64,000 nt of DNA from an uncultured Verrucomicrobiota bacterium (GCA_964489425.1 CAZAYP010000006.1:47802-111801); one strand, 5' to 3'. Shown: positions 3,001-45,278, counted from the first letter of the stretch. Translations and numbers: made by a program. Notes: a model not told the origin generated them from the letters alone.

Positions 3001-4121
3001 TAGGCGCCGATGTCCACGATGTAGTTCACGATGCGCGGATGGCCATCCAAGTCCAAAACATCGACCATCCATGCCTGGTTGGTGCCGCGGTCGATGCAGG
3101 GCGCCCCGAACGCCAGCCGATAGTTCTCGCCGCCCAGGTCCATGAACCCCGGCTCGTTGGTGAAGTTGCCCGTGCCGCCCTGCAGCGGCGTGGCGCAGCA
3201 GAACGTGCAGGAGCCGCCGAAATAGTTCCAGACATTGTCGCGGCTGACCGTGCCTTGGCGGGCAATATTATTATAGAAAATGGAGTTGTACGCCGTGCTG
3301 TCGCGGATGCCGCCCGCGTACCAGCCGGAGTTGGACACGAACGTGCAATTGTAGACCGTGGCGCCGTAAGCGCCGCCGCCGTCGTAGGCGCAGTAGTTGT
3401 TGTCCACCAGGCAACTGTAGAGCGCGCTGCCTTTCACGCCGCCAGCCCAGTAGGCCGACGTGTTGCGGCTGATCCGGCTGCGATACACCGTCCCGCCCCA
3501 CACCCCGCCGCCGCCGTTGAACGACGTCAGGCCGGCCGCGTGATTGCCAACGATCAAACTGTCGTAGACACCGCCCATGTAGACGCCACCGCCAAACTGG
3601 TTGGCGGAGCAGCCCGCGACTACGCAGTTGGAGAGGAGGTTGAGATCGCCATGGAAGCACCAGGCGCCGCCGCCGCATTGCTCGTAGTTGACATCGCCCG
3701 CGGCCAGCGTATGGCCATTGGTCAGGGTGAAGCCGGACAGGACCGCCGCACCTTGTTGACAATCAAGCATGGCGCAGCGCACCGCGGCCGGGCCGCGCGG
3801 CCCGCCACCCTCGATGACGGTGGCTGCGGGGCCGTTCACGCTGATCACCGTGATAGCGTTGGTGATGGCCACGCGGTTGGTCAGGCTGCCATATACCACC
3901 CGCCCGCCCGTGTTATACAACCCGTTGGTTACCACCACCACGTCGCCCGCGGCGCTTACGCCGACAACGGTCTGGATCTCGTGGCCGGCCGTGGCCCAGG
4001 TGTCGTAAGGTGCGCCCGGCGCCGGGCTGGCAGGATTCACGTAGCGGGTGGCGGCCGACGCGGTGCCAACGGAAAGCATTAGCCCGAGGATAGAAATCGA
4101 TCCGAACTTGATCCGGTTCAT
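1..4121 (-). CDS. Giant secreted beta-helix surface protein, N-terminal part only (the ORF runs off the left edge). It has a signal peptide and two choice-of-anchor-Q/PbH1-like right-handed beta-helix modules separated by a PKD-like domain.
   Basis: The ORF is absent from the track because it has no stop inside the window, so I read it by hand. The ATG is the complement of cat at 4119-4121, with AGGGAGG about 8 nt upstream. The translation starts MNRIKFGSISILGLMLSVGTASAATRYVNP (signal-peptide-like). Gly/Asn-rich beta-helix rungs follow, with two module caps of the form CC(A/S)TPL..G.GN.TN.P.F...G.PCID.G...DL.G..RI...VDIGAYE. A PKD-like segment (APLFTVFAAQVFG...YYSVALTVSNEVGE) lies between them. 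The track lists no minus-strand ORF pieces in this frame between 1 and 4121, which fits one continuous open frame. The last residues in the window (FGSPCIDAADGL...RYTDPRSPH...GAFEFVENAES) align to nt ~34990-35160 of the 3750-aa gene. Confidence 0.85.
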   Translation of the reverse strand, partial: MNRIKFGSISILGLMLSVGTASAATRYVNPASPAPGAPYDTWATAGHEIQTVVGVSAAGDVVVVTNGLYNTGGRVVYGSLTNRVAITNAITVISVNGPAATVIEGGGPRGPAAVRCAMLDCQQGAAVLSGFTLTNGHTLAAGDVNYEQCGGGAWCFHGDLNLLSNCVVAGCSANQFGGGVYMGGVYDSLIVGNHAAGLTSFNGGGGVWGGTVYRSRISRNTSAYWAGGVKGSALYSCLVDNNYCAYDGGGAYGATVYNCTFVSNSGWYAGGIRDSTAYNSIFYNNIARQGTVSRDNVWNYFGGSCTFCCATPLQGGTGNFTNEPGFMDLGGENYRLAFGAPCIDRGTNQAWMVDVLDLDGHPRIVNYIVDIGAYEYFNPHLNGTFTGAPLAGPAPLFTVFAAQVFGTNLNQLYYQWDYENDGVIDAEGYDLATVTNSGGYVEPRYYSVALTVSNEVGEAFTKVRTNYVRVAPAWVNVSPNGGHVYPYTNWALAATNLAHAVSMVAPHGAVWVTNGDYAITAQLALDSGLQLRSLQGAAQTVIRRAGGSNHRVLYITHSNAVVDGFTLSNGYVAAHGAGIYMTGGRVQNCRIIGNSNYELGAYRGGGIYMDNGTVTNCLVSGNRANHFGAGVYLLHGLLSRCLVSNNTLAANGGGVVCYNDSVVENCVIRNNAARDQGGGLVANGLARNCVIADNTINLYGGGVFIDEGRLQGCTISRNSAGTSGGGLGVGNATAKSIENCAIWNNAAPSGPNYAVRDGVDATFAFCCSTPLPNGAGNVTNPPLFADDARGDYRTLWGSATIDAGTNQDWMAGAVDLQGRTRIINGRVDIGAYEFESQALMLAYPYRDLFVHDTRRLEWFLSGVDTNAVRVDITIASHGLATMIATGVTRATTFDWDTTTAADDRYEMTFTLRDAGGAILATDARWVVVNNGAVWHSGTVTNNETWVTGRVHIVDGVLTIATNATVSVPGGAIVKVLPQGGFVVEGGGQLHLQAGPPAVLTSIYDDAVSGDDNHDADLTRPQPGDWRGFTVHAGGQVADDGADIRYVLVLVSGSLLSDATWRGSYLYLVTNDFTIPAGRVLTIQPGTVVKFAALKGMTVEAGGLLVAEGTLAEPITFTSIKDDTAGGDANQDGNNTVPGAGDWGMLLVQGTARLRYVDLRYGSGNNSGSWNNTAMVKVDGVGAVLDAQACRLSYALYDAISTWNNSTALVANCAVFWNDRGILIRETSAATVLNCAFYDNRWGMCPHGGISRIYNCIVSKSLEYGIFNCCGGSWDIQYNNVWGSGVRNYGSGDYTGQNGNISKDPLFKNPGAAVFQLQFGSPCIDAADGLRAPAIDYMGASRYTDPRSPHPGVPATNGAYADMGAFEFVENAES

Positions 4122-4399: not shown

Positions 4400-4849
4400 T
4401 TAAAGGGTCCCCAGCCACGTAGTCCAGACCCGCGCCAAGTGCGTCACTGTATCCGGGATTCCACGAAGCGGTTCCTCGACCATGCCCCAGACGATTTCCT
4501 GTCCATAACCGTGGATGAAGCGATGACGAAACGCCAGATACTTCTTCAGGCGCAGGGCAAGGGCCGCGCTCACCCCCCCTCCCAGACACGGTTCGGCAAG
4601 GAAGTCTGCCAGTATACGCGCGTGATAGTCCGGGCCTTGTGGCGGGGGCAATCCCAACGCAGCATACCGTCGCTTGCAAAGGTTTTCAACGGCAAGCCAT
4701 ACGTCGGCCACGTATTTTGCCGCAGCAACGGCCTCCCATTCCCGGAGCCCTTCCTCCGACATGTTGGAAAGTCGATGCGCCTGCTCCGCTATCGCGCGAA
4801 GGTGTTCAAGCTCGCACTGCACCTCCAACGCGACTTTGGCCTTATCCAT
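4400..4849 (-). CDS. HEPN-domain (HepT/DUF86-like) toxin of an MNT-HEPN toxin-antitoxin pair
   Basis: 149-aa track ORF. The HEPN signature R-x4-H-x-Y is present in LAFRHRFIHGYG. Its ATG (4847-4849) overlaps the stop of the upstream nucleotidyltransferase ORF by 8 nt. It lies in a lower-GC patch. Confidence 0.7.
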   Translation of the reverse strand: MDKAKVALEVQCELEHLRAIAEQAHRLSNMSEEGLREWEAVAAAKYVADVWLAVENLCKRRYAALGLPPPQGPDYHARILADFLAEPCLGGGVSAALALRLKKYLAFRHRFIHGYGQEIVWGMVEEPLRGIPDTVTHLARVWTTWLGTL

Positions 4850-5114
4850 AAAGGACTTTCCCGTAGCGTTCGACCACGGAATAAAAAGTCGGATTAAGCT
4901 CGCGAGCCACCAAATCGAATGGCTGGCGCAGAATGTCCATCAGTGCCACGTCGGCATCCAGGATGCGCTCCGGAGGAATGCCCTCAACTGCAAGGTCAAC
5001 ATCGCTTGCACGCCGGGGATCGGTCGTGGCGCTGCCGAACAGAATCACCCGCTTGGCGCCCAAGCGCACCAGTTCGCCAACCGCCTGCGGCAGGCTATCA
5101 AGATTCACAGCCAT
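4842..5114 (-). CDS. Minimal nucleotidyltransferase (MNT/MntA-like) antitoxin
   Basis: The minimal nucleotidyltransferase motif G-S-x(n)-D-x-D is present in VILFGSATTDPRRASDVDLAV. The track start at 5123 is a GTG only 3 nt from a GGAG. The ATG at 5112-5114 (MAVNLDSLPQ...) has better spacing, so it is used here. The gene is translationally coupled to the HEPN ORF downstream. Confidence 0.75.
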   Translation of the reverse strand: MAVNLDSLPQAVGELVRLGAKRVILFGSATTDPRRASDVDLAVEGIPPERILDADVALMDILRQPFDLVARELNPTFYSVVERYGKVLYG

Positions 5115-5479
5115 ATCAAACACACACTCCAGTCGTTGCGAGATCGGTGGCCGATCCGCCTTTGGGACAATGACTGTCGCACAAAAAGCTGCTCCATGAA
5201 ACGAGAAACTTCAGTCAGCTTGGCGTCCGCCCTCCGAAGCTGGACATTATTCGCCGTTCAGTCCGTGCTGCGAGTGGTTAAAAAACACACAAGTGGCATT
5301 GCTGTAGCGCCAATCCCTTTGTAATCAATGTGTTTTGCTGTTTATTTAAAAGTTGGCGCGGTAGTTGCTTAGTCCAGTTCCAAAACCAAGGTCAACAATA
5401 AATAAACAGTGGTCGCATAAAGGTTGAAGACGGCTGGGTTCGGTTTAGGCCGGTCTCAGAGCCGTAGTTGAGGGGGGAG

Positions 5480-5515
5480 CCGCAGCGCCAAGGCAACTTG
5501 GCGCTGCGGTCTTTT
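5480..5515 (+). terminator. Rho-independent-type terminator hairpin on the plus strand, with no annotated gene upstream
   Basis: Perfect 13-bp stem ccgcagcgccaag / cttggcgctgcgg (5480-5492 and 5497-5509) with loop gcaa, followed by tcttttg. On the minus strand the stem is followed by ctcccccc, so it looks plus-strand specific. Confidence 0.5.
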
Positions 5516-5534
5516 GTCCAGGAAAGAGCAGTTG

Positions 5535-5706
5535 AACTACGAATCACGCGAATCACGCGAATGCATCCCTTTGACTCTGCTAAATATGTACGGGCATGGA
5601 TCGAATTCTTCCGTCATCTAACAGGTGAACGATGTTATTCTCAACTTGTTCGCCCGCTCCTCTTTCTGCAGCAATGAGTTTCGCGTGATTCGCGTGATTC
5701 GTAGTT
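5535..5706. repeat. 172-bp element bounded by perfect 26-bp inverted repeats, each arm containing a tandem 9-mer (gaatcacgc x2)
   Basis: aactacgaatcacgcgaatcacgcga (5535-5560) is the exact reverse complement of tcgcgtgattcgcgtgattcgtagtt (5681-5706). The 120-bp AT-richer core has no convincing ORF. The element sits about 90 bp upstream of the CotH operon start. Confidence 0.8.
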
Positions 5707-5796
5707 AATTCAAATGCTGAATTCAGGTTTATAGATCCCGGGCCGAATTTGTCGAAACGGTTTACTTTGTCGGGTGCCAGGTGTAATTTTGATCTT

Positions 5797-8700
5797 ATGT
5801 TTCCTGCGTGGCGCATGTTCGTGTTCGGAGCTGGTGTAACGGCCGTGGCCGGGTGGGTCGCGGCTGCGGAAATTCACCCGGGACCCGCATCCCGATCCAC
5901 GCCGCTGACCATTTCGGAAATCATGTACCATCCCACCGCGCGCGCGGATGGGCGAGATCTGGAGTTCGTCGAGATCTTCAACACCGAGCCGTTCCCGCGG
6001 TCCCTGGCCGGATATAAGCTGGCCGGGGATGTCAGCTTCGACTTTCCCACCAACGCCATCCTGGGGGCGCGGGCGTACCTGGTTCTGGCCGCGGTGCCGG
6101 ACGATGTGCGGGCGGTGTACGGCGCCACCAATGTGCTCGGCGCCTACACGGGCCGACTGTCGAACAGTTCCGGCGCGCTGCGGCTGGAAACCCAGGCCGG
6201 CGCGTGCTTGCTGGAAGCTGAGTTTGACTCGGAGGATCCCTGGCCGGCGGCCGCGGACGGGGGCGGGTGCTCGCTCGTGCTGGCCGAGGGGTCCTACGGC
6301 GCCGCTGACTGCCGCGCGTACGCGCCATCGTACCAGCGCGGCGGGTCGCCCGGCCGTGGCGAGCCGGCGGCGGTCGGCGCGGCGAGCGTGGTCATCAACG
6401 AGCTCCTGACCCACACGGACCTGCCGCTGGTGGATTACGCGGAGCTCTACAACGCGGCCACCACGAGCGTGGACTGCTCCGGCATGGTGTTGACCGATGA
6501 CCCGGCAACCAACAAGTACCGGATCCCTGCCGCCACGGTGCTGGCGCCGGGCGGGTTCCTGGTGCTGGAGGAGGCCACGCTGGGATTCGGCTTGAGTGCC
6601 AACGGCGAAAGCCTGTTCCTGTTTTCGGCCAACACCAGCAACGTGCTGGACGCCGTCAAGTACGGCGGCCAGCAGAACGGCACGGCCTGTGGCCGGTACC
6701 CGGACGGCGCGGAGCGGCTGCGCCCCCTGGCCGCGCGCACGCCCGGCACGACCAACGCGGCGTTCCGGCAGGAGTCGGTCGTGATCAACGAGATCATGTT
6801 CAACCCGCCGGACGGCGACGCGGATGGCGAGTACATCGAGCTGCACAACCAGGGCGTGGCGGACGTGGGCCTGGGCGGCTGGCGCCTGGCCGGCGGCGTG
6901 GAGCTGGTCATCCCCACCGGCACGGTCCTGGCCGCGGGCGGGTACCTGGTGCTGGCCAACAAGGCCGCGCACCTGATCGGCCACTACGCGCACCTGAACG
7001 CGGGCAACTGCATCGGCGACTACTCCGGCACGCTGTCCGACCGCGGCGAGGTCGTCCGCCTGCTGGCGCCCGACGACCCCAACCTGCCCGACGACCTCTG
7101 CCAGTACGAGGTGGACCGCGTGGTGTACTTCGACGGCGGTTCCGGGCGCGAGTACGCGGACGGCGGGGGCAGCAGCCTGGAGCTTACCGACCCGCGCGCG
7201 GACAACGAGATCCCAATCAACTGGGCCGCCAGCGACGAATCGGCCAAGGGCCGGTGGATCACCAACGACATCACCGGCGTGCTGGACAACGGCATGCTGC
7301 CGCCGTCCACGAGCATCAACAACGTCAGCCTGATCCTGCCGCACGGCGGCGAGTGCCAGGTGGACGACGTGGCGGTGTATTACCAGTACGTCAACCGGGT
7401 GCGCAACCCGGACTTCGGCACCGGGACCAACTACTGGCAGCTGCTGGGCAACCACGAGCGCACCCGGCGCGAAGCCGACAGCCAGGGCAGCGGCTACGGG
7501 CTGCACCTGCGCGCGTCCGGTCCGGGCGACACGCGGGTGAACCGCTGCATTGGCGCGCTCTCGGTCTCGCTGCCGGCGGGCGGCACGGTGCGGCTGCGCT
7601 GCCGGGCGCGGTGGCTGGCCGGCAGCCCGGAGCTGGTCATGTGGCTGCGCGGCGGTTACCTCGACGCCCACGTCACGCTGCCCGTGCCCGACAACCTGGG
7701 CACCCCCGGGCAGGCCAACAGCCGGCGCGTGGTCAACCCCGGGCCCGCCATCTACGATGTCCGCCACACGCCCGGCCTGCCCGCGGCCGGCGCGCCGGTC
7801 GTGGTGCTGGCGCGCGCCAGTGACCCGGACGGCGTCGCCGCGGTCGACCTGCGCTACCGCATCGATCCCGCCGCCGGGTACACGACCGTGGCCATGGCCC
7901 GCGATGGGCAGGGCCGCTACGTGGCGCAGCTGCCCGGCCAGGCCCAGGGCGCCCGGGCGGCGTTTTACATCCTGGCGCGGGACGCCGCGGCGGCCTGCGC
8001 CACGAACACGTTCCCGGCCGCTGCCCCGACCAACGAGGCCGTGGTCGGGTTCGGCCTGGCCCGGACCGGCACGGACATCGACCAGGTCGCCGCCTGGATG
8101 ACCACGGCCCGCATGGCCGCGTGGCAGGGCCGTAGTTCCCTCAGCGACGAGCCGCTGCCCTGCACCCTGGTCTGCGGCGAGCGCATCGTATACGACGCCG
8201 CCATCCGGTTCCGCGGCAGCGTGTTCGTGCGCGGCGCCTACGGCGACCCGGCCACCAACGCCGCCTCCTACTGCGTGGACCTGCCGCACGACAACCGCAT
8301 GCTGGACAGCGATGAGCTCACCCTCGACTGGCAGGAGCCCAGCCGCGACAACACGTTCCAGCGCGAGCGCGCCGCCTTGTGGGTTGCGGAGCGCCTCGGC
8401 CTGCCCGCGTTCCACAAGCGCTACGTCACCGTGGACCTCAACGGAATCCGCCGCGCCACCGTGTACAGCGACTCCCAGGAGATCAGCGCCGACTACATCC
8501 GCAGCCGTTACCCCGACGCGGACGCCGGCCACCTCCACAAGATCAACGACTGGTTCGAGCTCAACGACGCGTTCAGCCCCATCGAGGGCGACTTCGTCAA
8601 CCGCGACGGCAGCCTGATCGACTACACCAGCAGCGGCGCCAAGAAAGACGCCGCCTACCGCTGGCGCTGGGAAAAACGGACCACCACCGGATACCAGGCG

Positions 8701-11523
8701 GACATGACCCCGCTGTACGCCCTCGTGGATGCCGCCAACCTGTCCGGCACCGACCTGGTGCGCGAGATGCAGCACCACGCCGACCTGGAGCAGTGGCTGG
8801 GCGTGGTGATGTTCCGCCACCTGGTGGGCGACTGGGACAGCTTCGGCTACAACCGCGGCAAGAACATGCTGGCGTACCTGCCGCCCGGCGGCCGCTGGAA
8901 CCTGTTGAACTGGGACGTGGACTTCTGTCTCGGCGCCGACATGGGCGGGAGCGAGTGGGACGACCCGTTTATCGTGGACTCCGCGCGCATGCCGCGCATG
9001 GCCGCGATCCTGGCGGCCGGCCCGTTCCGCCGCCAGGCATGGCAATGGCTGGACCGCGCCGTGACCGGCCCGTTCCGGGGCGCGGCCATCAACGCGGAAC
9101 TGGACGCCGTCTACGCGGGCCTGACCGCCAACGGCCTCGCCGTGGCCTCGCCGCTGAACATAAAAACGTGGATCGAAAACCGCTATAACTACCTGCTCGG
9201 GCGCCTGAGCGACGTGAAAGACTTCGAGCTCGGGATCCGCGAATCCGATTTCTCCACCGGCCTGAACTGGACCCCGCTGTCCGGCTGGGCGCCCATCCAG
9301 TGCGCGGTGATCAAGATCAACGGCAAGCCCGCGGACATGACCTGGACCGGCGACTGCGACTGGGAAACCCGCGTCTGGCTGACCAACGGGCTCAATATCG
9401 TCACCGTCCAGGGCTGCGATTCCAACGGCGCGGCGCGCGCGGGCCAGGCCGACAGCATCAACATCACCTGCACCGCGCTGGGCGCGGACCCGCGGAGCCG
9501 GCTGGTGATCAACGAGATCATGTACCACCCGCCGACCAACCGGGCCGAGTTCGTGGAACTATACAACCGCTCGTCCACTTCGGCGTTCGATCTCTACAAC
9601 TTCCGCCTGGACGGCGTGGACTGGACGTGCGACCGGGCCCAGGTGATCGCGCCGGGCGAGTTCGTGGTGGTGTGCCGCAGCCTCAACGACAGCGCGCGCG
9701 CCTACGGGCCCGGCCTCCCGCTGGCCGGGCCGTGGGCCGGCACGCTGCGCGCCGACGGCGAAACCCTCACGCTCCAGCAGCTCGACGCCACCGGCGGCGT
9801 GGCGCTGGTGGTGGACACCGTGACCTATTCCAGCAACTGGACGGCCCTGGCCAACGGGCAGGGCTGCGCGCTACAACTGATCGATGCCGCCGAGGACAAT
9901 GACCGGGTGGGCAACTGGACCGTCGACCCCGGCGCGCGCTGCACCCCGGGCCGGACCAACTCCGTGGCCAGCGATCTGCCGGCGTTCCCGCCGCTCTGGA
10001 TCAACGAGGTCCAGCCGGACAACCGCGCGACCCTCGCCGACAACCACGGGGATTTCGATCCGTGGCTCGAGATTTGCAACACCTCCAACGCGGTCCAGGA
10101 CCTGTCCGGGTACTGCCTGACCGATGACCTGGCCGTGCCCGCCAAGTGGGCGTTCCCCGCGGGCGCCGCGGTGACCAACGCCGGGTTCAAGCTGGTCTGG
10201 GCGGATAACGAGCCGGGCGAGTCCACGGCCACGGAATACCATGCCGGGTTCCGCCTCGCCACGGCCGGGGGCCAGGTGGCCCTGATCAGCACCAACGGCG
10301 GGCGCTACATCATCCTCGATCTGTTCGCGTACCCGGCCGCGGTCCCGGCCGACCAATCCTATGGCGATTTCCCGGACAGCCAGGCCCACGACCGCCGCAT
10401 TTTCCATTACCCAAGCCCCGGCGCGACCAACAACAACGCCGCTCCCACCGCCCGCATTTACCTCAACGAGTGGCTGGCTAAAAACAACACCAGCATCGTC
10501 GATCCGGCCACGGGCACGCGCGCCGACTGGTTCGAGCTGTACAACGACCAGGACTATGCCGTGGACATCACCGGCTACGCGCTCAGCGACACGCCGGCCG
10601 TGCCGTTCCAGTTTGTCATCAGCGGCAGCACGGAGCTGCAGCCGCGCGAGTTCCGCCTGGTCTGGGCCGACGACACCAGCGCCAACGCCTGGGGCACCAA
10701 CGATCTCCACGTGCCGTTCAAGCTCAGCACCTCCGGCGAAACCCTGCTGCTGTCCGCGCCCGGCGGCCAGGTCGTGGATACGGTCACGTTCGGCGCCCAG
10801 GCCGACGACGTATCCCAGGGCCGGTACCCGGACGGGGCGGGCACCCTGGTCGCGCTGGCGGCGCGCTCGCCACGCGCGAGCAACGTGACCAACCACCAAT
10901 ACACCCTGACTGCCACGGCGGGCGCCAACGGCCGCATCGCCCCCGCCGGCGTCCAGGCCGTGGCCGGTGGCGGCAGCGCGGTCTTCGTGATCACCGCGGA
11001 TCGCTACTACGTGATCCGCGATATCCAGACCAACGGCGCAAGCGTGGGCGCCCCCTTGGGCATCCCGTGCCGGACCTGCACCTGGGCTGCCGTGAGCGCC
11101 GACGGCGCCATCGCCGCCACGTTCCGCGCCGTCACCGCCACCAACGGCACGCCCCAGTGGTGGCTGGTGCAGTACGGCCTGACCAACGCCGACCTCGATG
11201 CCGACGCGCTGGACGATCCGGATCGGGACGGGTACCCGACCTGGAAGGAGCACGTCGCCGGGTCCAGCCCGGTGAATGCCGACTCCCTGTGGGCGGTGAA
11301 CGGGAGCCGCGATGCGGGCGCGGCGATGTTTTCGTTGTCCTGGCCCAGCCTGGCCGGACGCACCTACAGCCTGCACACTGCCACCAACCTGGCCGACGGG
11401 TTTGTCCGGCTCCCGGAAAATCTCCCCGCCAACCCCCCGGTGAACGTGTACTCCATGCCGGTGAGCAATTACGTGGCGCGCTACTTCCACCTCGGCGTTA
11501 CCATGGATCCGGATGAAGACTGA
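5797..11523 (+). CDS. Secreted CotH-family atypical kinase with six lamin-tail domains (LTD)
   Basis: The track ORF start at 5749 is a TTG. The first ATG at 5797 gives the signal-like N-terminus MFPAWRMFVFGAGVTAVAGWVAAAE. Six LTD units begin ISEIMYHP..EFVEIFN, VINELLTH..YAELYN, VINEIMFNP..EYIELHN, VINEIMYHP..EFVELYN, WINEVQPD..PWLEICN and YLNEWLAKN..DWFELYN. The central CotH core includes FQRERAALWVAERLGLP and GKNMLAYLPPGGRWNLLNWDVDFCLG. A DPDRDGYPTWKE motif lies near the C-terminus. Confidence 0.85.
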   Translation: MFPAWRMFVFGAGVTAVAGWVAAAEIHPGPASRSTPLTISEIMYHPTARADGRDLEFVEIFNTEPFPRSLAGYKLAGDVSFDFPTNAILGARAYLVLAAVPDDVRAVYGATNVLGAYTGRLSNSSGALRLETQAGACLLEAEFDSEDPWPAAADGGGCSLVLAEGSYGAADCRAYAPSYQRGGSPGRGEPAAVGAASVVINELLTHTDLPLVDYAELYNAATTSVDCSGMVLTDDPATNKYRIPAATVLAPGGFLVLEEATLGFGLSANGESLFLFSANTSNVLDAVKYGGQQNGTACGRYPDGAERLRPLAARTPGTTNAAFRQESVVINEIMFNPPDGDADGEYIELHNQGVADVGLGGWRLAGGVELVIPTGTVLAAGGYLVLANKAAHLIGHYAHLNAGNCIGDYSGTLSDRGEVVRLLAPDDPNLPDDLCQYEVDRVVYFDGGSGREYADGGGSSLELTDPRADNEIPINWAASDESAKGRWITNDITGVLDNGMLPPSTSINNVSLILPHGGECQVDDVAVYYQYVNRVRNPDFGTGTNYWQLLGNHERTRREADSQGSGYGLHLRASGPGDTRVNRCIGALSVSLPAGGTVRLRCRARWLAGSPELVMWLRGGYLDAHVTLPVPDNLGTPGQANSRRVVNPGPAIYDVRHTPGLPAAGAPVVVLARASDPDGVAAVDLRYRIDPAAGYTTVAMARDGQGRYVAQLPGQAQGARAAFYILARDAAAACATNTFPAAAPTNEAVVGFGLARTGTDIDQVAAWMTTARMAAWQGRSSLSDEPLPCTLVCGERIVYDAAIRFRGSVFVRGAYGDPATNAASYCVDLPHDNRMLDSDELTLDWQEPSRDNTFQRERAALWVAERLGLPAFHKRYVTVDLNGIRRATVYSDSQEISADYIRSRYPDADAGHLHKINDWFELNDAFSPIEGDFVNRDGSLIDYTSSGAKKDAAYRWRWEKRTTTGYQADMTPLYALVDAANLSGTDLVREMQHHADLEQWLGVVMFRHLVGDWDSFGYNRGKNMLAYLPPGGRWNLLNWDVDFCLGADMGGSEWDDPFIVDSARMPRMAAILAAGPFRRQAWQWLDRAVTGPFRGAAINAELDAVYAGLTANGLAVASPLNIKTWIENRYNYLLGRLSDVKDFELGIRESDFSTGLNWTPLSGWAPIQCAVIKINGKPADMTWTGDCDWETRVWLTNGLNIVTVQGCDSNGAARAGQADSINITCTALGADPRSRLVINEIMYHPPTNRAEFVELYNRSSTSAFDLYNFRLDGVDWTCDRAQVIAPGEFVVVCRSLNDSARAYGPGLPLAGPWAGTLRADGETLTLQQLDATGGVALVVDTVTYSSNWTALANGQGCALQLIDAAEDNDRVGNWTVDPGARCTPGRTNSVASDLPAFPPLWINEVQPDNRATLADNHGDFDPWLEICNTSNAVQDLSGYCLTDDLAVPAKWAFPAGAAVTNAGFKLVWADNEPGESTATEYHAGFRLATAGGQVALISTNGGRYIILDLFAYPAAVPADQSYGDFPDSQAHDRRIFHYPSPGATNNNAAPTARIYLNEWLAKNNTSIVDPATGTRADWFELYNDQDYAVDITGYALSDTPAVPFQFVISGSTELQPREFRLVWADDTSANAWGTNDLHVPFKLSTSGETLLLSAPGGQVVDTVTFGAQADDVSQGRYPDGAGTLVALAARSPRASNVTNHQYTLTATAGANGRIAPAGVQAVAGGGSAVFVITADRYYVIRDIQTNGASVGAPLGIPCRTCTWAAVSADGAIAATFRAVTATNGTPQWWLVQYGLTNADLDADALDDPDRDGYPTWKEHVAGSSPVNADSLWAVNGSRDAGAAMFSLSWPSLAGRTYSLHTATNLADGFVRLPENLPANPPVNVYSMPVSNYVARYFHLGVTMDPDED

Positions 11524-12238
11524 ACGGTGCCTCCCGGCCGTCTGGACCGCGGTTCTGGCCGCGGCGCTGCCGCTGGCCGCCGCCGCCGGGGGCGACCTGC
11601 TCGCCTACTGGGATTTCGGCGCCACGGCCGCCAAGTACACGGAAACCTGCACGGTCCAGCGCGTGACGTTCGCCGCGCTGGCGCTGACCGCTAACGCCGG
11701 CAGCTTCAAGGACCCCAACGGCAAGAACGGCGTGGCCTACACCGACCCCGACGGCGTCACCCACGCCGGCGGCCAGGCCGCCGCCCTGGACGAAGCCATC
11801 GAGAATGCCGGCACGCTCGACGTGCGCCTGGACGGCCGCGGGCGGCAGCTGTCCGAGGTGCGCTGGGACGCGTTCACCGACGACGCCGGCGACGCGCGCG
11901 GGCCCAAGACCTACGACCTGTCCTACAGCGTGGATGGCGGCGTGCACTGGATCCCCCTGGCCCGCGATGCGCCCTTCGTGCGCGACGGCAGCAAAACCAA
12001 TTATTACCCTTACTCCTACAGCCTGACCAACCACGCTGCCTTGCGCAACGCCGCCGAGGTCCGCCTGCTGATCCACAACCTCGCCGGCGGCACGGCCGGC
12101 GCCTGCGGGTTCGACAACGTCATGGTCGCCGGCTGGCCCGAAAATCCCGATGACCTGCTGCTGTTCCTGCCCGCCATCCTGGCCCGGCCGGCCACCAACG
12201 CCGCGGGCACGCGAGCCGGACATGGACGCGGCCTTTGA
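11513..12238 (+). CDS. Hypothetical secreted protein (signal peptide, probably a beta-sandwich)
   Basis: The N-terminus MKTERCLPAVWTAVLAAALPLAAAAGG is signal-peptide-like. The ATG overlaps the CotH stop (11521-11523) and the stop (12236-12238) overlaps the VTC start. The tail ..PENPDDLLLFLPAILARP.. is hydrophobic. I recognise no family. Codon usage matches the neighbouring genes. Confidence 0.6.
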   Translation: MKTERCLPAVWTAVLAAALPLAAAAGGDLLAYWDFGATAAKYTETCTVQRVTFAALALTANAGSFKDPNGKNGVAYTDPDGVTHAGGQAAALDEAIENAGTLDVRLDGRGRQLSEVRWDAFTDDAGDARGPKTYDLSYSVDGGVHWIPLARDAPFVRDGSKTNYYPYSYSLTNHAALRNAAEVRLLIHNLAGGTAGACGFDNVMVAGWPENPDDLLLFLPAILARPATNAAGTRAGHGRGL

Positions 12239-13019
12239 GATCATGATGGAGCGGCTGGAGGCCAAGTACCTGGTCTCGCCCCAGCAGGTGCCCGCGATCC
12301 GCGAATACATCAAGCCGTTCTGCGAGCAGGACAAGAACAGCCGGCGGTCGCTGGACGGGTACGTGATCACCACGCTGCAGCTCGATACGCCCAACTTCGC
12401 GCTCCACATGGCCAAGCCCGATAACGCGCTCACCCGTTTCAAACTGCGGGTGCGCACGTACGGTCTGGATGGCAAAGCCCCGGTGTTCCTGGAAGTGAAG
12501 CGCAAGTTCCGCGGCTCGGTGATCAAAACCCGGGCCGCCGTGCCTCCGGACCGTTGGGGCCCGGACCTGCTGCGGCAGACCGCCACGGACCTGACCTTCC
12601 GCTCGACCACGGAAACGGCTGCGTTCTGCGAGTTCCTGCGCCTGGCGCGGGAGACCGGCGCCCGGCCCGCCGTGCGCATCCGCTACCACCGCGAATCTTT
12701 TTTTGGCCTGGCCGACCGCTACTCGCGGCTGACCCTCGACTCCCGCCTGCGGTTCCAGCGTGCCGACGACTGGTCCGTGCTGGGCGGCAGCGCCTGGCAC
12801 GCCCTGGACTCCAACGCCAGCCAGGGCAAGGGGCACGCCTACTCGGGCGTGGTCCTGGAACTCAAGGCGCTGGTGGAGCCGCCGCAGTGGATGATGGGGC
12901 TGGTGGAATTCTTCGAGCTTGAACGCGTCGGCCACTGCAAGTATTCAATGGCCGTGCAACAGGAGGCTTGGGACCTGGGCGTGATCGAAGATCGCAAGGA
13001 CTGGGTATGGGGCCTCTAG
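12222..13019 (+). CDS. VTC-domain protein (triphosphate-tunnel / polyphosphate-polymerase-like domain)
   Basis: The N-terminus MDAAFEIMMERLEAKYLVSPQQ has the E-x-K-Y start typical of bacterial VTC/TTM proteins. RFKLRVRTY...VFLEVKRK basic strands follow. The track start at 12150 is further upstream, but the ATG at 12222 fits the domain start. Confidence 0.8.
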   Translation: MDAAFEIMMERLEAKYLVSPQQVPAIREYIKPFCEQDKNSRRSLDGYVITTLQLDTPNFALHMAKPDNALTRFKLRVRTYGLDGKAPVFLEVKRKFRGSVIKTRAAVPPDRWGPDLLRQTATDLTFRSTTETAAFCEFLRLARETGARPAVRIRYHRESFFGLADRYSRLTLDSRLRFQRADDWSVLGGSAWHALDSNASQGKGHAYSGVVLELKALVEPPQWMMGLVEFFELERVGHCKYSMAVQQEAWDLGVIEDRKDWVWGL

Positions 13020-13049
13020 CCGGGCGGCAACGACACAAGGCGGAGCATC

Positions 13050-13730
13050 ATGGATTTCGCAACTGTTTTTGAATCAGCGCGCATCATGGGGGTGGTGGAC
13101 ATCCTCTGCGCCATGCTCGCGGCGTTCGTCCTGTGCATGGGGCACGCGGCCGTGTACCGCTGGACGTTCCAGGGGTTCACCTACTCCCGGGCCTACGTGC
13201 ACGCCATGATCCTCGGCGGCATGGTCACCGCCATGCTGATCATGGCCATCGGCAACAACCTCGCCCGCGGGCTGGGCATCCTGGGCACCCTGGCGGTGAT
13301 CCGTTTCCGCACGCCGATCCGCGACCCGCGCGACATGATCTTCCTGTTCGGGTGCCTGGCCACCGGCATTGCCTGCGGCGCCACGGTGTACGCGGTGGCG
13401 GCCATCGGCTCGGTGTGCGTGGACGCGGCCGCCCTGTTCCTGCACTTTTCGCCCTTCGCCTCGCGCCGCAACTACGAGGGCCTGCTGCGCTTCGTGGCCG
13501 CGCCGCACGACACGAACCCCGCCGCCGCGGAGGAACTCATGGCGCGCTACTGCCGCAGCTACACCCTGGTGGCCATGCGCGAGTCCGCCCAGGGCGAGGC
13601 CAACGAGTACGCCTACCACGTGCGTCTGGTGGATCCGGCGTACCGCCAGGACCTGCTGGAAGGCGTCCGCAAGCTGCCGGGCATCACCGACTCCGCCCTG
13701 CTCATGCACCGCACCACCGTGGAGCTCTGA
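13050..13730 (+). CDS. DUF4956-family membrane protein
   Basis: The N-terminal half is hydrophobic with 3-4 probable TM helices (VVDILCAMLAAFVLCMGHAAV, AMILGGMVTAMLIMAI, MIFLFGCLATGIACGATVYAVAAIGSV). It contains the conserved-looking GILGTLAVIRFRTPIRDPRDM and a soluble C-terminal domain. It lies next to a VTC-domain gene, as is usual for this family (from memory). Confidence 0.8.
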   Translation: MDFATVFESARIMGVVDILCAMLAAFVLCMGHAAVYRWTFQGFTYSRAYVHAMILGGMVTAMLIMAIGNNLARGLGILGTLAVIRFRTPIRDPRDMIFLFGCLATGIACGATVYAVAAIGSVCVDAAALFLHFSPFASRRNYEGLLRFVAAPHDTNPAAAEELMARYCRSYTLVAMRESAQGEANEYAYHVRLVDPAYRQDLLEGVRKLPGITDSALLMHRTTVEL

Positions 13731-14911
13731 TGCGCCTGACCCCGCCCGCGCCGCATCCCCACCACCACCTGCCGTGGCGCCTGCGCCTCCGCTCGGGCTG
13801 GCCGCTGCTGGTCTGGCTGGCGGCGGCGATCGCCGTGTACGTTCTGGTCTGGCGCGACCGCGACTGGCTGCTGGGCGTGGAAATCCACGGCATCGTCGGC
13901 CGCGAGACGATCATCGTGGCGCCCGAGGAAACCGCCCGCATCCAGCGCATCCTGGTGGCCGCCGGCCAGCACGTCACCAACAACCAGCCGCTGGTCGAGC
14001 TGGACACCGCGTCCATCGAGTACCAGCTCGCCGACAGCCTGCTGGCCGCCCAGCGCACGGCCCAGACCATCCAGGACCGCCGCCTGGGCCTGCAGGAAAA
14101 CCTGGCCCGGCGCAACGAATACGTGGCCGATCTCGAGGCCCGCCTGGGCGAGGCCCGCCTGGAGCAGGCCGCCGCCCAGGCGGAGCTGGAGCGCCTGCAG
14201 ATCGAGCGCCAGGAGCGGCAAAAACAGTTTGCCCAGGGCCTGCTGGACGCGCTGGGCCGCGATGAACCGCTCGCGCGGCTGTCCGAGCTGGAGCAGGCCG
14301 GGGCGGCGCGCCAGGACCTGATCCGGCTCTACGCGGCGCAACTGGAAACCGCCCGGCGCCAGGCCGCCGCCACCGCCGCCACCCTCGAGCGCAGCCGGCA
14401 ACAGGACCAGGACCCGGCCGCGATCGACGCCATGCTCCAGGACATTGCCCGCGAAACCCAACGCTACCGCGACAGCTACACCTTGCGCTCGCCGTGCAAC
14501 GGGATCGTGTCCGAGGTGCGCAGCGAGCCGGGCGAGGTCGTGGACCGCACCCGCACGGTGATGCGCATCGTGCCGGAATCGTTCAGCACCATCGTGGCGC
14601 TCATCCCCGAAAGCCGCAGCACGCTCTTTGCGGTGGGCGACCGGGTGTACGTCAGCGCGATCAACTGCCGCGAGCCGGGCCGGGTGGGCCTGACGGCCAC
14701 CATCGATTCGCTGGCGCCCGAGGTGCGGGTCGAGGCGGCCATGCTCAACCTGGCGGGCCGCCAGGTCCCCATGCGCACGCGGCGCGCCATGCTGCGGATC
14801 GACGATCCGGCCGCCAGCCACCTCATCGCCGGCGAAGTGGTCGAGGTGTCGCGCAAGGCCACGCGGCCATCCCTGGCCGGCTGGCTGCGCGGGGACCAGG
14901 ACCGGCCATGA
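13730..14911 (+). CDS. HlyD-family periplasmic adaptor (membrane fusion protein)
   Basis: The ATG at 13730 overlaps the DUF4956 TGA. There is one N-terminal TM helix (WPLLVWLAAAIAVYVLVW). A lipoyl-like hairpin (IVAPEETARIQRILVAAGQHVTNNQPLVELD ... LRSPCNGIVSEVRSEPGEVV) flanks a long coiled coil (LEARLGEARLEQAAAQAELERLQIERQERQ). Confidence 0.8.
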   Translation: MRLTPPAPHPHHHLPWRLRLRSGWPLLVWLAAAIAVYVLVWRDRDWLLGVEIHGIVGRETIIVAPEETARIQRILVAAGQHVTNNQPLVELDTASIEYQLADSLLAAQRTAQTIQDRRLGLQENLARRNEYVADLEARLGEARLEQAAAQAELERLQIERQERQKQFAQGLLDALGRDEPLARLSELEQAGAARQDLIRLYAAQLETARRQAAATAATLERSRQQDQDPAAIDAMLQDIARETQRYRDSYTLRSPCNGIVSEVRSEPGEVVDRTRTVMRIVPESFSTIVALIPESRSTLFAVGDRVYVSAINCREPGRVGLTATIDSLAPEVRVEAAMLNLAGRQVPMRTRRAMLRIDDPAASHLIAGEVVEVSRKATRPSLAGWLRGDQDRP

Positions 14912-16611
14912 GCGGCCGCGCCGCCCGCGCAGTCCGTACGGCCGTGCTCCTGGCCGGGCTGGCGGGCCTGGCCGGCGCCTGCGCCCGCGGCCCGCGCACG
15001 TTCCCGGCGCCGCCGGACGTGGTCGTGACCCCGGCCGAGATCGCGGCCGCCGTGGACGAAGAAACCTGCGCCACCCCGCGCGCGGCGATCAATGCCGCCC
15101 TGCTCCAGAACCCCCGCATCCGCGCCCGCGCGCGGGATGTGCGCCAGGCCGCGGCGCGCGCCGGCATGGCCGGCGATATCCGCGCCCCGGAGATCCAGAT
15201 CGGGCTGCGCGGCGCCGATGCCGACGGCGAGGCCCGCGGCCGGGAATCCGCCACGCGCACCGGGCGCGCCCGTGAGCTCGGCGTCCAGACCGAGGAAGAC
15301 ATCTATCCCGACTACCGCGAGTACCGCGGCACCCGGCACAGCGTGCGCCAGTCCCAGTCGACCCAGCAGAGCACCCGATCAGAGTACGGATGGGAACACC
15401 TCGACGACCGCGGCTGGGAGATCGGCCTGCGCCTGTTCCCGCCCAACCCCTGGGAATACCGGGCCGAGGTCTCGGAGGCCGCGGCGCGGCTGCACGTGGC
15501 CGAGGCGCGGCTGCGCGAGGAGCAACTGGACCTGGCGCGCGACGCCGCCCTGGCCGCGTCCGACCTGGCCCACGCCCGCGCCGAACTCGAGGCGCTGCGC
15601 CGCCTGGAACGGCTGTGTGTTGACCAGGCCCGGCGCGCCGCCGCCATGCCCATGGCCGACCGGGCGGCCATGCTGCGGCGCGAGCTGGACGTGCAGTCGC
15701 GCATCGCCCGGGTCGAACGGCGCATCTGCCAGGTCACCGCCGAGCTGGAGCTGCTCGGCGGCCGGCGCGTGGACCCGGACGCGTTCCGCCCCGACTGGAA
15801 CTGGTTGCCCGCGACCAACACGGACGCCGTGGCGCTGCGCCCGCTGCTGGCCGAAGCCGCCACGCGCCGGCCCGATGTGGCCCTGGCGTTCTGGCAGGCG
15901 CGCGAGCTGCAGGCCGAAATGCGCCTGGCCCAATCCGCATCCATCCCCTGGCTGCGGCAGGTTGAAGTCGCTTACGGCACGGAGCGGCGGGAATCGCGCG
16001 GCGGCGGCACGGCCAACCAGTCCGCGTACGAAACCACCACGGACGCCGGCGGGGCCTACACCGATTATGCCGACGGCCACCGCCGCATTGACCGCGAAAC
16101 CGCCAGCCAGCGGTCCTGGTCGCAGGAGTCCGAATCCGGCACCTACGACGGCACGCGGGACACGGACGAGTGGCTGGTCCAGGCCGCGGTCAGCCTCCCG
16201 GTGTTCAACTGGCTGGCGGACGATTACTCCACCGCCCGCCACGCCGTGGGCGAGGCCTGGAAAGACGTGGACGACAGCCTGGCCGCGGCGCGGCGCGACC
16301 TGCTGGCCCACGTGCGCGCCCTGCGCCAGGCCGACACCGCTTGCCGCACCACCGAGGCGCGCCTCATGCCGCCGGCACGTCGGCTGTCGGAGCAGCTCAA
16401 CGCCCTGCAGAAAAACGGCCTGCTCTCGCCCGCGGAGAGCATCCAGCTCTCCGGCCAGGTGCTGGATATCGCGCTGGACTGCCTCGCCGCGCGGCGCGCG
16501 CTGCTGGACGCGCGCATCCGGCTGTGGATTGCCTGCGGCGCGCCGCTGGCCGCAGACCTGGCCGGCGCCGGCGATGGAGCGCCCGCCGCCGCGCCGGTGG
16601 CGCCACCGTAG
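14908..16611 (+). CDS. TolC-like outer-membrane efflux channel (OMF family), divergent
   Basis: The start is an ATGA overlap with the adaptor stop. The signal peptide ends ..LLAGLAGLAGACA (possible lipobox). Two helical repeats resemble TolC coiled coils (NPRIRARARDVRQAAAR...; RRPDVALAFWQARELQAEMRLAQ...; LSPAESIQLSGQVLDIALDCLAARRALLDARIRLW). Two unusually polar inserts are present. Confidence 0.7.
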   Translation: MSGRAARAVRTAVLLAGLAGLAGACARGPRTFPAPPDVVVTPAEIAAAVDEETCATPRAAINAALLQNPRIRARARDVRQAAARAGMAGDIRAPEIQIGLRGADADGEARGRESATRTGRARELGVQTEEDIYPDYREYRGTRHSVRQSQSTQQSTRSEYGWEHLDDRGWEIGLRLFPPNPWEYRAEVSEAAARLHVAEARLREEQLDLARDAALAASDLAHARAELEALRRLERLCVDQARRAAAMPMADRAAMLRRELDVQSRIARVERRICQVTAELELLGGRRVDPDAFRPDWNWLPATNTDAVALRPLLAEAATRRPDVALAFWQARELQAEMRLAQSASIPWLRQVEVAYGTERRESRGGGTANQSAYETTTDAGGAYTDYADGHRRIDRETASQRSWSQESESGTYDGTRDTDEWLVQAAVSLPVFNWLADDYSTARHAVGEAWKDVDDSLAAARRDLLAHVRALRQADTACRTTEARLMPPARRLSEQLNALQKNGLLSPAESIQLSGQVLDIALDCLAARRALLDARIRLWIACGAPLAADLAGAGDGAPAAAPVAPP

Positions 16612-17055: not shown

Positions 17056-17187
17056 GTGACCGGGGAAACGAGCTTGGAACCAATCAGCGAGCTAGAAACG
17101 GCGGTTCTAACACTGCGCGGGGTTAAGGTTCTGCTTGACGCCGATCTGGCCCGCATTTATGGGGTTCCGACCACGTTGTTGAACTAG
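17056..17187 (+). pseudogene. Truncated ORF6N/KilA-N-type DNA-binding domain remnant
   Basis: The hand-read frame gives V..ETSLEPISELETAVLTLRGVKVLLDADLARIYGVPTTLLN*. It matches the N-terminal I..LRG.KV(M/L)LD.DLA.(L/I)YGV signature of ORF6N domain proteins. It stops after about 43 codons, where full-length members continue. It lies in a low-GC non-coding stretch. Confidence 0.45.
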
Positions 17188-45120: not shown

Positions 45121-45278
45121 ACGCTTTGGCTCATGTTCAATGATATAAGCATAAACAAGTAATTGTAGCGGTCGAAACAAGTATGTCAAGCGCCGATTGT
45201 GATGAATAATGCTTGCGGCGGGCGGGCCGCGCGTCTATCGTTACGGACCAATGTCGATGGTACCCGGGAGGATTGTGC

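Follow-up and report, generated by a model that had tools for sequence, protein, structure and literature searches.

Extracellular, periplasmic and capsule-like polyphosphate has been reported for several bacteria, in which its synthesis is attributed to PPK1 and PPK2, and we know of no export route for bacterial polyphosphate. In the eukaryotic VTC complex polyphosphate synthesis is coupled to translocation across a membrane (PMC9911596). In bacteria, cotH, a gene annotated 'polyphosphate polymerase' (VTC) and a DUF4956 gene lie as accessory genes beside Gram-positive pel operons, sometimes together with a DUF4832 hydrolase, and have been assigned no function (Whitfield et al. 2020, PMC7112168). 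A 2024 preprint on S. intermedius described a DUF4956 protein with an ACT domain in addition to four transmembrane segments, and presumed polyphosphate to be cytoplasmic (bioRxiv 10.1101/2024.04.20.589940). Here we analyse a cluster of six genes at positions 5797-16611 of a 64,000-nucleotide stretch of DNA from an uncultured Verrucomicrobiota bacterium (GCA_964489425.1 CAZAYP010000006.1:47802-111801); the whole of this stretch is referred to as the window. In this cluster a VTC enzyme and a DUF4956 membrane protein are followed by a periplasmic adaptor and a TolC-type channel. The original prediction, which was made from the sequence of the window, had named CotH, VTC and DUF4956 as recurrent neighbours with no assigned function, and the two reports above bear this out. 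In the literature we found no bacterial polyphosphate exporter, and no link of DUF4956 or VTC to an adaptor or a TolC-like protein.

A four-gene cassette conserved across diderm phyla

The six genes lie on the same strand and are tightly packed, as read directly in the window:

5797-11523, plus strand: LTD and CotH protein of 1908 amino acids with six LTDs (Pfam; CotH profile match 5jd9; signal peptide predicted from the sequence)
11513-12238, plus strand: orphan secreted protein of 241 amino acids with a predicted signal peptide (GC3 0.90; only a self-match in the protein search)
12222-13019, plus strand: VTC-type triphosphate-tunnel enzyme of 265 amino acids, cytoplasmic, predicted polyphosphate polymerase (Pfam VTC; profile match to Vtc4, 3g3q)
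13050-13730, plus strand: DUF4956 inner-membrane protein of 226 amino acids, proposed conduit and adaptor partner (Pfam, AlphaFold2, Foldseek, hhalign, motif)
13730-14911, plus strand: HlyD/EmrA-type periplasmic adaptor of 393 amino acids (Pfam, NCBIfam; profile match to EmrA, 4tko)
14908-16611, plus strand: OprM/NodT/TolC-family outer-membrane channel lipoprotein of 567 amino acids (Pfam OEP; profile match to OprM; lipobox LAGAC)

The TGA of the CotH open reading frame (ORF), at 11521-11523, is overlapped by the next ORF, which begins with the ATG at 11513, and the TGA of that second ORF (12236-12238) lies downstream of the VTC start at 12222. In-frame alternatives for the VTC start exist at 12150, 12243 and 12246; the gene caller on an identical public contig (SRR12261224) took 12222 and made the same six gene calls. 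The VTC stop, at 13017-13019, is followed by a 30-nt gap and the DUF4956 ATG at 13050. The last base of the DUF4956 TGA (13728-13730) is also the first of the adaptor ATG at 13730, reading TGATG at 13728-13732, and the adaptor TGA overlaps the ATG of the outer-membrane factor (OMF) at 14908, reading ATGA at 14908-14911. The OMF gene is the last of the cluster, with its stop at 16609-16611, and the CotH gene may start at 5797 or equally at 5815, the gene caller's choice. All the junction coordinates in the original prediction were recovered in this reading. Its six family assignments were also confirmed, as CotH, LTD, VTC, DUF4956, HlyD and OEP all exceed the curated Pfam cut-offs. The GC content at third codon positions (GC3) is 0.88-0.93 in all six ORFs, a range typical of true coding genes at the GC content found here (window GC about 68%).

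To follow the cassette through other genomes we retrieved three sets of 80 species-representative loci (240) with three DUF4956 sub-alignments and annotated them with hidden Markov models (HMMs) built iteratively from the window proteins. Across the whole of Verrucomicrobiota, Kiritimatiellia and Lentisphaerota there are DUF4956 homologues with 55-74% identity, and Pfam-annotated contigs from these groups carry VTC–DUF4956–adaptor–OEP with no pump gene. The first set comes from the same three groups of the Planctomycetes-Verrucomicrobia-Chlamydiae (PVC) superphylum. VTC is immediately upstream of DUF4956 in 77/78 of these loci, the adaptor immediately downstream in 67/73, and the OMF is present in 57/67; in two further loci the adaptor-OMF pair lies upstream of VTC. 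The third set reaches much further, to Acidobacteriota (Bryobacteraceae, Solibacteraceae), Myxococcota including cultured Sorangium, and Planctomycetota, and also to KSB1, Marinimicrobia, Latescibacterota and some Ignavibacteria and Calditrichota. The adaptor is found in all 74 loci that could be scored and the OMF in 54/61. VTC is present in 48/55, in two gene orders, 31 before DUF4956 and 17 after the OMF. The DUF4956-adaptor-OMF-VTC order, seen in 17/48 loci of this set (L193, L195, L198, L199, L204, L209, L211 and others), is in many cases accompanied by an adaptor ORF of about 690 rather than about 390 amino acids.

Pooling the first and third sets, an adaptor adjoins DUF4956 in 141/147 loci with enough flanking sequence, an OMF is attached in 111/128, and VTC is adjacent in more than 120 cassettes. 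The recurrence of the VTC-DUF4956-adaptor-OMF order in more than 100 species-level genomes from many phyla shows that the arrangement is not due to chance. The conserved core is these four genes, and it is widespread in many diderm phyla. The original prediction had put the adaptor and the TolC-like protein in one system with VTC and DUF4956, and had suggested counting how often such a duct is attached; in related and distant genomes alike the co-conservation is strong, and there is no canonical inner-membrane pump. No ABC, RND or MFS gene was found in the Pfam-annotated cassette neighbourhoods, and among 136 same-strand ORFs flanking 160 cassettes there was no recurrent transporter family, ABC or RND, and a single MFS match. 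Pairwise distance matrices of the four proteins correlate with r = 0.64-0.91 over 105 loci, which fits inheritance as a unit, with a contribution also from shared species phylogeny.

The encoded proteins and a proposed route for polyphosphate

The VTC protein matches Pfam VTC (PF09359) with an E-value of 4.5e-32 (111.9 bits against a cut-off of 23), and a profile built from 20 homologues matches yeast Vtc4 (3g3q) at 3.5e-8. Such profiles were needed, as single-sequence searches of the PDB with VTC, DUF4956 and the CotH domain returned nothing useful. In Vtc4 nine tunnel residues (K200, R264, R266, K281, Y359, R361, E426, S457 and K458) bind triphosphate and Mn2+. Seven of the nine, K200, R264, R266, K281, Y359, R361 and E426, all needed for polyphosphate synthesis (bioRxiv 10.1101/2023.01.27.525886), align with identical, conserved residues in bacterial VTC, the equivalents of S457 and K458 lying beyond the HMM alignment. 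Of the catalytic tunnel residues on which the original prediction depended, these seven are present. Pfam finds the VTC domain alone in the 265-residue protein, with neither an SPX nor a membrane domain. With these polymerase residues retained, the bacterial enzyme is predicted to be a polyphosphate polymerase.

DUF4956 is assigned by Pfam with an E-value of 4e-10 and belongs to a large family, with at least 4,999 clusters at 50% identity (E ≤ 1e-3). The hallmark of the family is an invariant R-F-R within IG..lArg.G..G.l..iRFRt..rD.rD, forming the loop RFRT..RD.RD. An AlphaFold2 model (pLDDT 77.9) contains four long helices and one short, at 15-39, 47-67, 71-83 (the short one), 93-110 and 114-133, followed by a C-terminal beta-alpha-beta-beta-alpha-beta domain. 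Foldseek matched solely this C-terminal domain, to ACT domains, to the C-terminal domains of MgtC (2lqj and 7qa5) and to PII/CutA folds. A profile alignment to E. coli YhiD spans 143 columns (hhalign probability 94%, E 1e-7); there is no Pfam MgtC match, so the relationship to MgtC and YhiD holds at the superfamily level only. A cytoplasmic ACT-like domain would place the arginine-rich loop in the cytoplasm as well, judging from the model and the positive-inside rule.

The adaptor matches Pfam HlyD_3 and HlyD_D23 with E-values of about 1e-10 to 1e-11, in agreement with NCBIfam, and its profile matches EmrA (4tko) at 1.6e-29 and also LipC, MacA and HlyD. It has a basic cytoplasmic N-terminal tail and a single transmembrane helix, as well as a long coiled-coil hairpin. 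The closest solved relatives are adaptors of the EmrA, HlyD and MacA type, which pair with non-RND inner-membrane partners. The OMF matches Pfam OEP at 5e-8 (33.5 bits against a cut-off of 22), and its profile matches OprM (9e-23), SilC, VceC, CusC and TolC (5e-10) over nearly the full length; the cysteine of its lipobox, LAGAC, is conserved. By these matches both proteins are bona fide members of their families. An adaptor/OMF pair needs an inner-membrane partner, and the only membrane protein conserved alongside this pair is DUF4956. The cassette comes without any ABC, RND or MFS pump, which leaves DUF4956 as the sole candidate for that role.

The best-supported mechanism is one in which the four proteins form an envelope-spanning machine that couples polyphosphate synthesis to export, a proposal that we hold tentatively, as close to probable but falling short of it. 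In this mechanism the VTC enzyme would polymerise the gamma-phosphate of ATP into polyphosphate in the cytoplasm, at the inner membrane. The nascent chain would pass through an oligomer of DUF4956, with its predicted MgtC-like fold and its invariant arginine-rich loop facing the cytoplasm, and the ACT-like domain may dock or regulate the VTC enzyme. The HlyD/EmrA-type adaptor and the OprM/TolC-type lipoprotein would then carry the chain through the periplasm and the outer membrane. Translocation could be driven by polymerisation itself, by analogy with the eukaryotic VTC complex and synthase-dependent polysaccharide secretion, and no ABC, RND or MFS pump would then be needed.

In the window two secreted proteins are added upstream of the cassette, and these would probably act on or with the polymer at the surface. 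The first carries an N-terminal signal peptide, LTD in six stretches (E 5e-73) and a central CotH domain (3e-14), whose profile matches B. cereus CotH (5jd9) at 1.6e-21. The catalytic aspartates of B. subtilis CotH, D228 and D251, align to invariant or near-invariant Asp, which suggests that the kinase is probably active. CotH lies within 10 kb in 16/80 loci of the first set, about 24/80 of the second and 25/80 of the third, and is thus a facultative neighbour of the cassette, present in about 20-30% of loci. LTD was the sole recurrent family among the 136 flanking ORFs (19 ORFs), and such proteins are repeatedly found next to cassettes that show no CotH domain nearby; LTD may be the domain with a functional tie to the exported product. 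The second gene encodes the 241-residue orphan, which matched only itself among 5.8 billion proteins and was found in 0/80 loci of the first set. A non-coding artefact was considered for this gene and rejected, since a GC3 of 0.90 marks it as genuinely coding; it is a lineage-specific addition that stands outside the conserved cassette. Its C-terminus, 'PENP...LLLFLPAILAR', resembles what we take to be a degenerate PEP-CTERM-like tail. The six-gene unit of the original prediction therefore stands as a tightly packed cluster but not as a conserved unit, as the core has four genes, CotH is facultative and the second gene is an orphan.

The company of large secreted CotH/LTD proteins in a minority of loci raises the question of whether these giants are secreted by a type-I-like route made up of the adaptor and OMF, with VTC and DUF4956 as accessories. 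HlyD and LipC, among the relatives of the adaptor, do serve type-I secretion. However, the cassette lacks an ABC transporter, N-terminal Sec signal peptides are present on both CotH and the orphan, the CotH homologues of Bacteroidota carry the tails of the type IX secretion system (T9SS), and for most cassettes CotH is absent from the surrounding 10 kb, so that we regard such a route as very improbable. Returning to polyphosphate export, it is conceivable, if unlikely, that CotH uses the exported polymer as a phosphodonor, an idea that fits the recurrent co-location of secreted CotH with VTC and DUF4956 in both monoderms and diderms. The full proposal would be of a new class of trans-envelope secretion system, found in at least ten diderm phyla, in which VTC, an MgtC-like DUF4956 channel, the adaptor and the TolC-type channel extrude polyphosphate and CotH/LTD proteins, where present, use or organise it, for example as a phosphodonor. 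Taken as a whole we consider this possible but on balance doubtful.

Contrary evidence and alternative readings

A number of observations weigh against polyphosphate export by such a machine. Co-transcription of the cluster genes is putative, and the literature holds no biochemistry for any bacterial VTC-domain protein or for DUF4956. In the VTC enzyme the equivalents of S457 and K458 fall outside the HMM alignment. A search with the 48-residue C-terminal VTC peptide, made for these two residues, matched only an unrelated protein; the invariant C239-K240-Y241 is the likely, putative equivalent of S457/K458. The enzyme is also missing beside some ducts. One Spartobacteria metagenome-assembled genome has DUF4956-adaptor-OMF without an adjacent VTC, and several Sorangium genomes likewise have no adjacent VTC, their slot being filled by a PPDK_N ATP-grasp protein. 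In four of these genomes the slot gene encodes a protein of about 700 amino acids that has PPDK_N in its C-terminal half (E 1e-20 to 4e-22) and no similarity to VTC. The genes lie directly upstream of DUF4956-adaptor-OMF-CotH:

L197:7822-9933, Sorangium PPDK_N gene
L206:7816-9933, Sorangium PPDK_N gene
L221:7192-9936, Sorangium PPDK_N gene
L228:7801-9870, Sorangium PPDK_N gene

The idea that this protein is a divergent VTC was rejected (hhalign probability 1.5%), and it may instead be a non-orthologous replacement of the cytoplasmic enzyme. A PPDK_N protein in the VTC slot argues for a cytoplasmic partner that is, in general terms, an ATP-using phosphotransfer enzyme, and this keeps alive a reading with the same architecture and another cargo. 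The enzyme would then be an energiser that consumes ATP or other NTPs, or the maker of another phosphorylated product, and the duct would export that product or a small anionic molecule. The triphosphate-tunnel superfamily includes triphosphatases, adenylate cyclases and RNA triphosphatases, and the loci in which DUF4956, adaptor and OMF occur without an adjacent VTC point the same way. On the other side, the match of the bacterial proteins is specifically to the VTC family, the polymerase residues are kept, with the equivalent of K200 among them, and VTC is the adjacent enzyme in the more than 120 cassettes counted above. We judge another cargo to be unlikely.

The membrane protein presents a further difficulty. 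Foldseek found no match between the DUF4956 model and the VTC membrane subunits (7ytj and 8i6v chains); DUF4956 shows no resemblance to the VTC membrane domain, and the interpretation in the original prediction needs to be amended on this point. The Foldseek and hhalign results instead identify DUF4956 as a predicted remote relative of MgtC and YhiD with an ACT-like C-terminal domain, MgtC-like and not Vtc1-like. The MgtC proteins characterised so far act as regulators by binding to other membrane proteins, and are not known to be channels. The duct is also absent from a number of loci. Four PVC loci have VTC-DUF4956 without it, and in the second set, which covers Bacteroidota, Ignavibacteriota, Calditrichota and relatives, neither an adaptor nor an OMF was found in any of the 80 Bacteroidota-type DUF4956 loci, although the hosts are diderms. 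VTC is upstream of DUF4956 in 72/80 of these loci, and the ORFs 3' of DUF4956 encode CotH/LTD proteins with T9SS tails or are unrelated genes.

The DUF4956 subfamily of the second set (the Bacteroidota/Ignavibacteriota type, L091-L170) carries the motif ARAFGLVGA and keeps VTC upstream, and a nucleotidyl-transferase gene follows DUF4956 in 10/45 loci in which a downstream ORF was scanned. The 80 duct-less loci first gave the idea that the duct is specific to the PVC superphylum, which the third set overturned: the duct tracks the DUF4956 subfamily, not the phylum.

The remote homology to MgtC and YhiD, the ACT/MgtC-like C-terminal domain and the duct-less Bacteroidota-type subfamily would all suit a DUF4956 that acts as an MgtC-like regulator or sensor. 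Its ACT-like domain would sense a ligand, the adaptor and OMF would serve a distant pump, and polyphosphate would stay in the cytoplasm, as the S. intermedius preprint also took it to do. Yet the adaptor and OMF genes adjoin DUF4956 in about 140 species from many phyla, with no pump gene nearby and with stop/start overlaps in this window, and the distance matrices of the four proteins correlate. Had the adaptor/OMF pair a remote pump for a partner, its lasting linkage to DUF4956 would be unexpected. We consider a purely regulatory DUF4956 to be quite unlikely, and continue to favour coupled polyphosphate synthesis and export at the strength given above.

Flanking DNA and comparison with known systems

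Two elements were located in the DNA upstream of the cluster:

5479-5510, plus strand: strong terminator-like hairpin with a 14-bp stem and a T tail, the upstream boundary of the cluster (terminator scan and inverted-repeat search)
5535-5561 and 5680-5706, no strand: perfect 27-nt inverted repeat (AACTACGAATCACGCGAATCACGCGAA), unique in the window, with 0 expected by chance

Within the cluster terminator-like matches are no more frequent than expected by chance. The arms of the 27-nt repeat enclose a 118-nt spacer that is richer in AT, about 90 nt upstream of the CotH start, and the repeat may be a regulatory element or the remnant of a small mobile element. Two related GC-rich hairpin elements resembling repetitive extragenic palindromes, at 5301-5367 and 5461-5510, lie in a 1.4 kb intergenic stretch of lower GC (4400-5800); the second contains the terminator-like hairpin with the 14-bp stem. 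An ORF at 75-4082 on the plus strand was considered as the neighbouring gene and rejected as a shadow ORF (GC1 0.91, GC3 0.60) of a minus-strand gene. This real upstream gene, whose start is at 4121 or 4367, is cut by the left end of the window; its product is a secreted NosD-type beta-helix protein with a length above 1370 amino acids. On the other side, about 1 kb of non-coding DNA lies 3' of the OMF gene, and within it a reading frame at 17100-17186 on the plus strand, ending in GVKVLLDADLARIYGVPTTLLN and a stop, resembles what is presumably a truncated remnant of ORF6N/KilA-N type. Beyond this stretch are genes for a glycine-cleavage T protein, a GT2 glycosyltransferase, a TrmB-like methyltransferase and an outer-membrane barrel, and the neighbours on both sides are unrelated to the cluster. 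No ABC, RND or MFS transporter lies near the cluster in the window, no pel gene or DUF4832 hydrolase flanks it there, and Rfam and tRNA scans of the window gave no matches. Further away the window holds a second giant NosD beta-helix protein (22007-27034, minus strand), a giant protein of 3750 amino acids with seven CarboxypepD_reg repeats, SdrD_B and DUF7619 (29594-40846, plus strand), and a fusion of a Na+/Pi cotransporter with PhoU (42916-45189, minus strand), which is phosphate-related, lies 26 kb from the cluster and is unlinked to the cassette.

If polyphosphate export by the cassette is true, a yeast-type VTC polymerase works in bacteria and the cassette is the first candidate for a polyphosphate exporter. 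It would also provide TolC-type ducts with a new class of inner-membrane partner, give the large DUF4956 family its first molecular role and offer a lead on the MgtC superfamily. The supply of phosphodonor to secreted CotH kinases would have a testable answer, and the result would bear on the cotH, VTC and DUF4956 genes beside Gram-positive pel biofilm operons and in Clostridium perfringens NELoc-2. The idea is directly testable, as there are cultured carriers of both the duct variant (Sorangium) and the duct-less variant (Belliella marina).

Of the described systems, the eukaryotic VTC complex (Vtc4/Vtc3/Vtc1; 7ytj, 8i6v) shares with the cassette a catalytic domain of the same Pfam family, with 7/9 binding residues, and the proposed logic of a cytoplasmic polymerase on a membrane partner, with synthesis feeding translocation. 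In contrast, the bacterial enzyme is a separate, soluble protein of 265 amino acids without SPX, DUF4956 takes the place of the three-helix Vtc1/DUF202-type domain, and an adaptor and an outer-membrane channel are added. The Gram-positive pel-associated clusters have the same three families, cotH, VTC and DUF4956, side by side. Here the host is a diderm, there is no adjacent pel or DUF4832 gene, the adaptor and channel are added, and the CotH protein has 1908 amino acids with six LTDs. The MgtC/SapB/YhiD proteins resemble DUF4956 in a predicted N-terminal helical membrane domain followed by a C-terminal ACT-like domain, over the 143 columns aligned to YhiD (probability 94%). DUF4956 is nevertheless another Pfam family, with its own invariant RFRT..RD.RD motif and with VTC, adaptor and OMF as its partners.

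Systems that export their substrates across the whole envelope offer the other comparison. In synthase-dependent secretion (BcsABC, PgaABCD, Pel and alginate) the principle that we propose is the same, with polymerisation at the inner membrane driving the export of a linear polymer. The cassette, however, has no glycosyltransferase, uses an adaptor and a TolC-type channel where those systems have a TPR scaffold and a beta-barrel porin, and would handle a polymer that is presumed to be inorganic. With EmrAB-TolC, MacAB-TolC and HlyBD-TolC it has in common an OMF lipoprotein of the OprM/NodT/TolC family, an adaptor of the EmrA/HlyD/MacA kind, and adjacent genes with stop/start overlap. Unlike these tripartite efflux and type-I secretion systems, it has no ABC, MFS or RND component, and the 226-residue DUF4956 is its sole membrane protein, in the company of a triphosphate-tunnel enzyme. 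The system would accordingly be a tripartite duct that combines a polymerase with an inner-membrane partner of a new class, and a new secretion system if the biochemistry holds.

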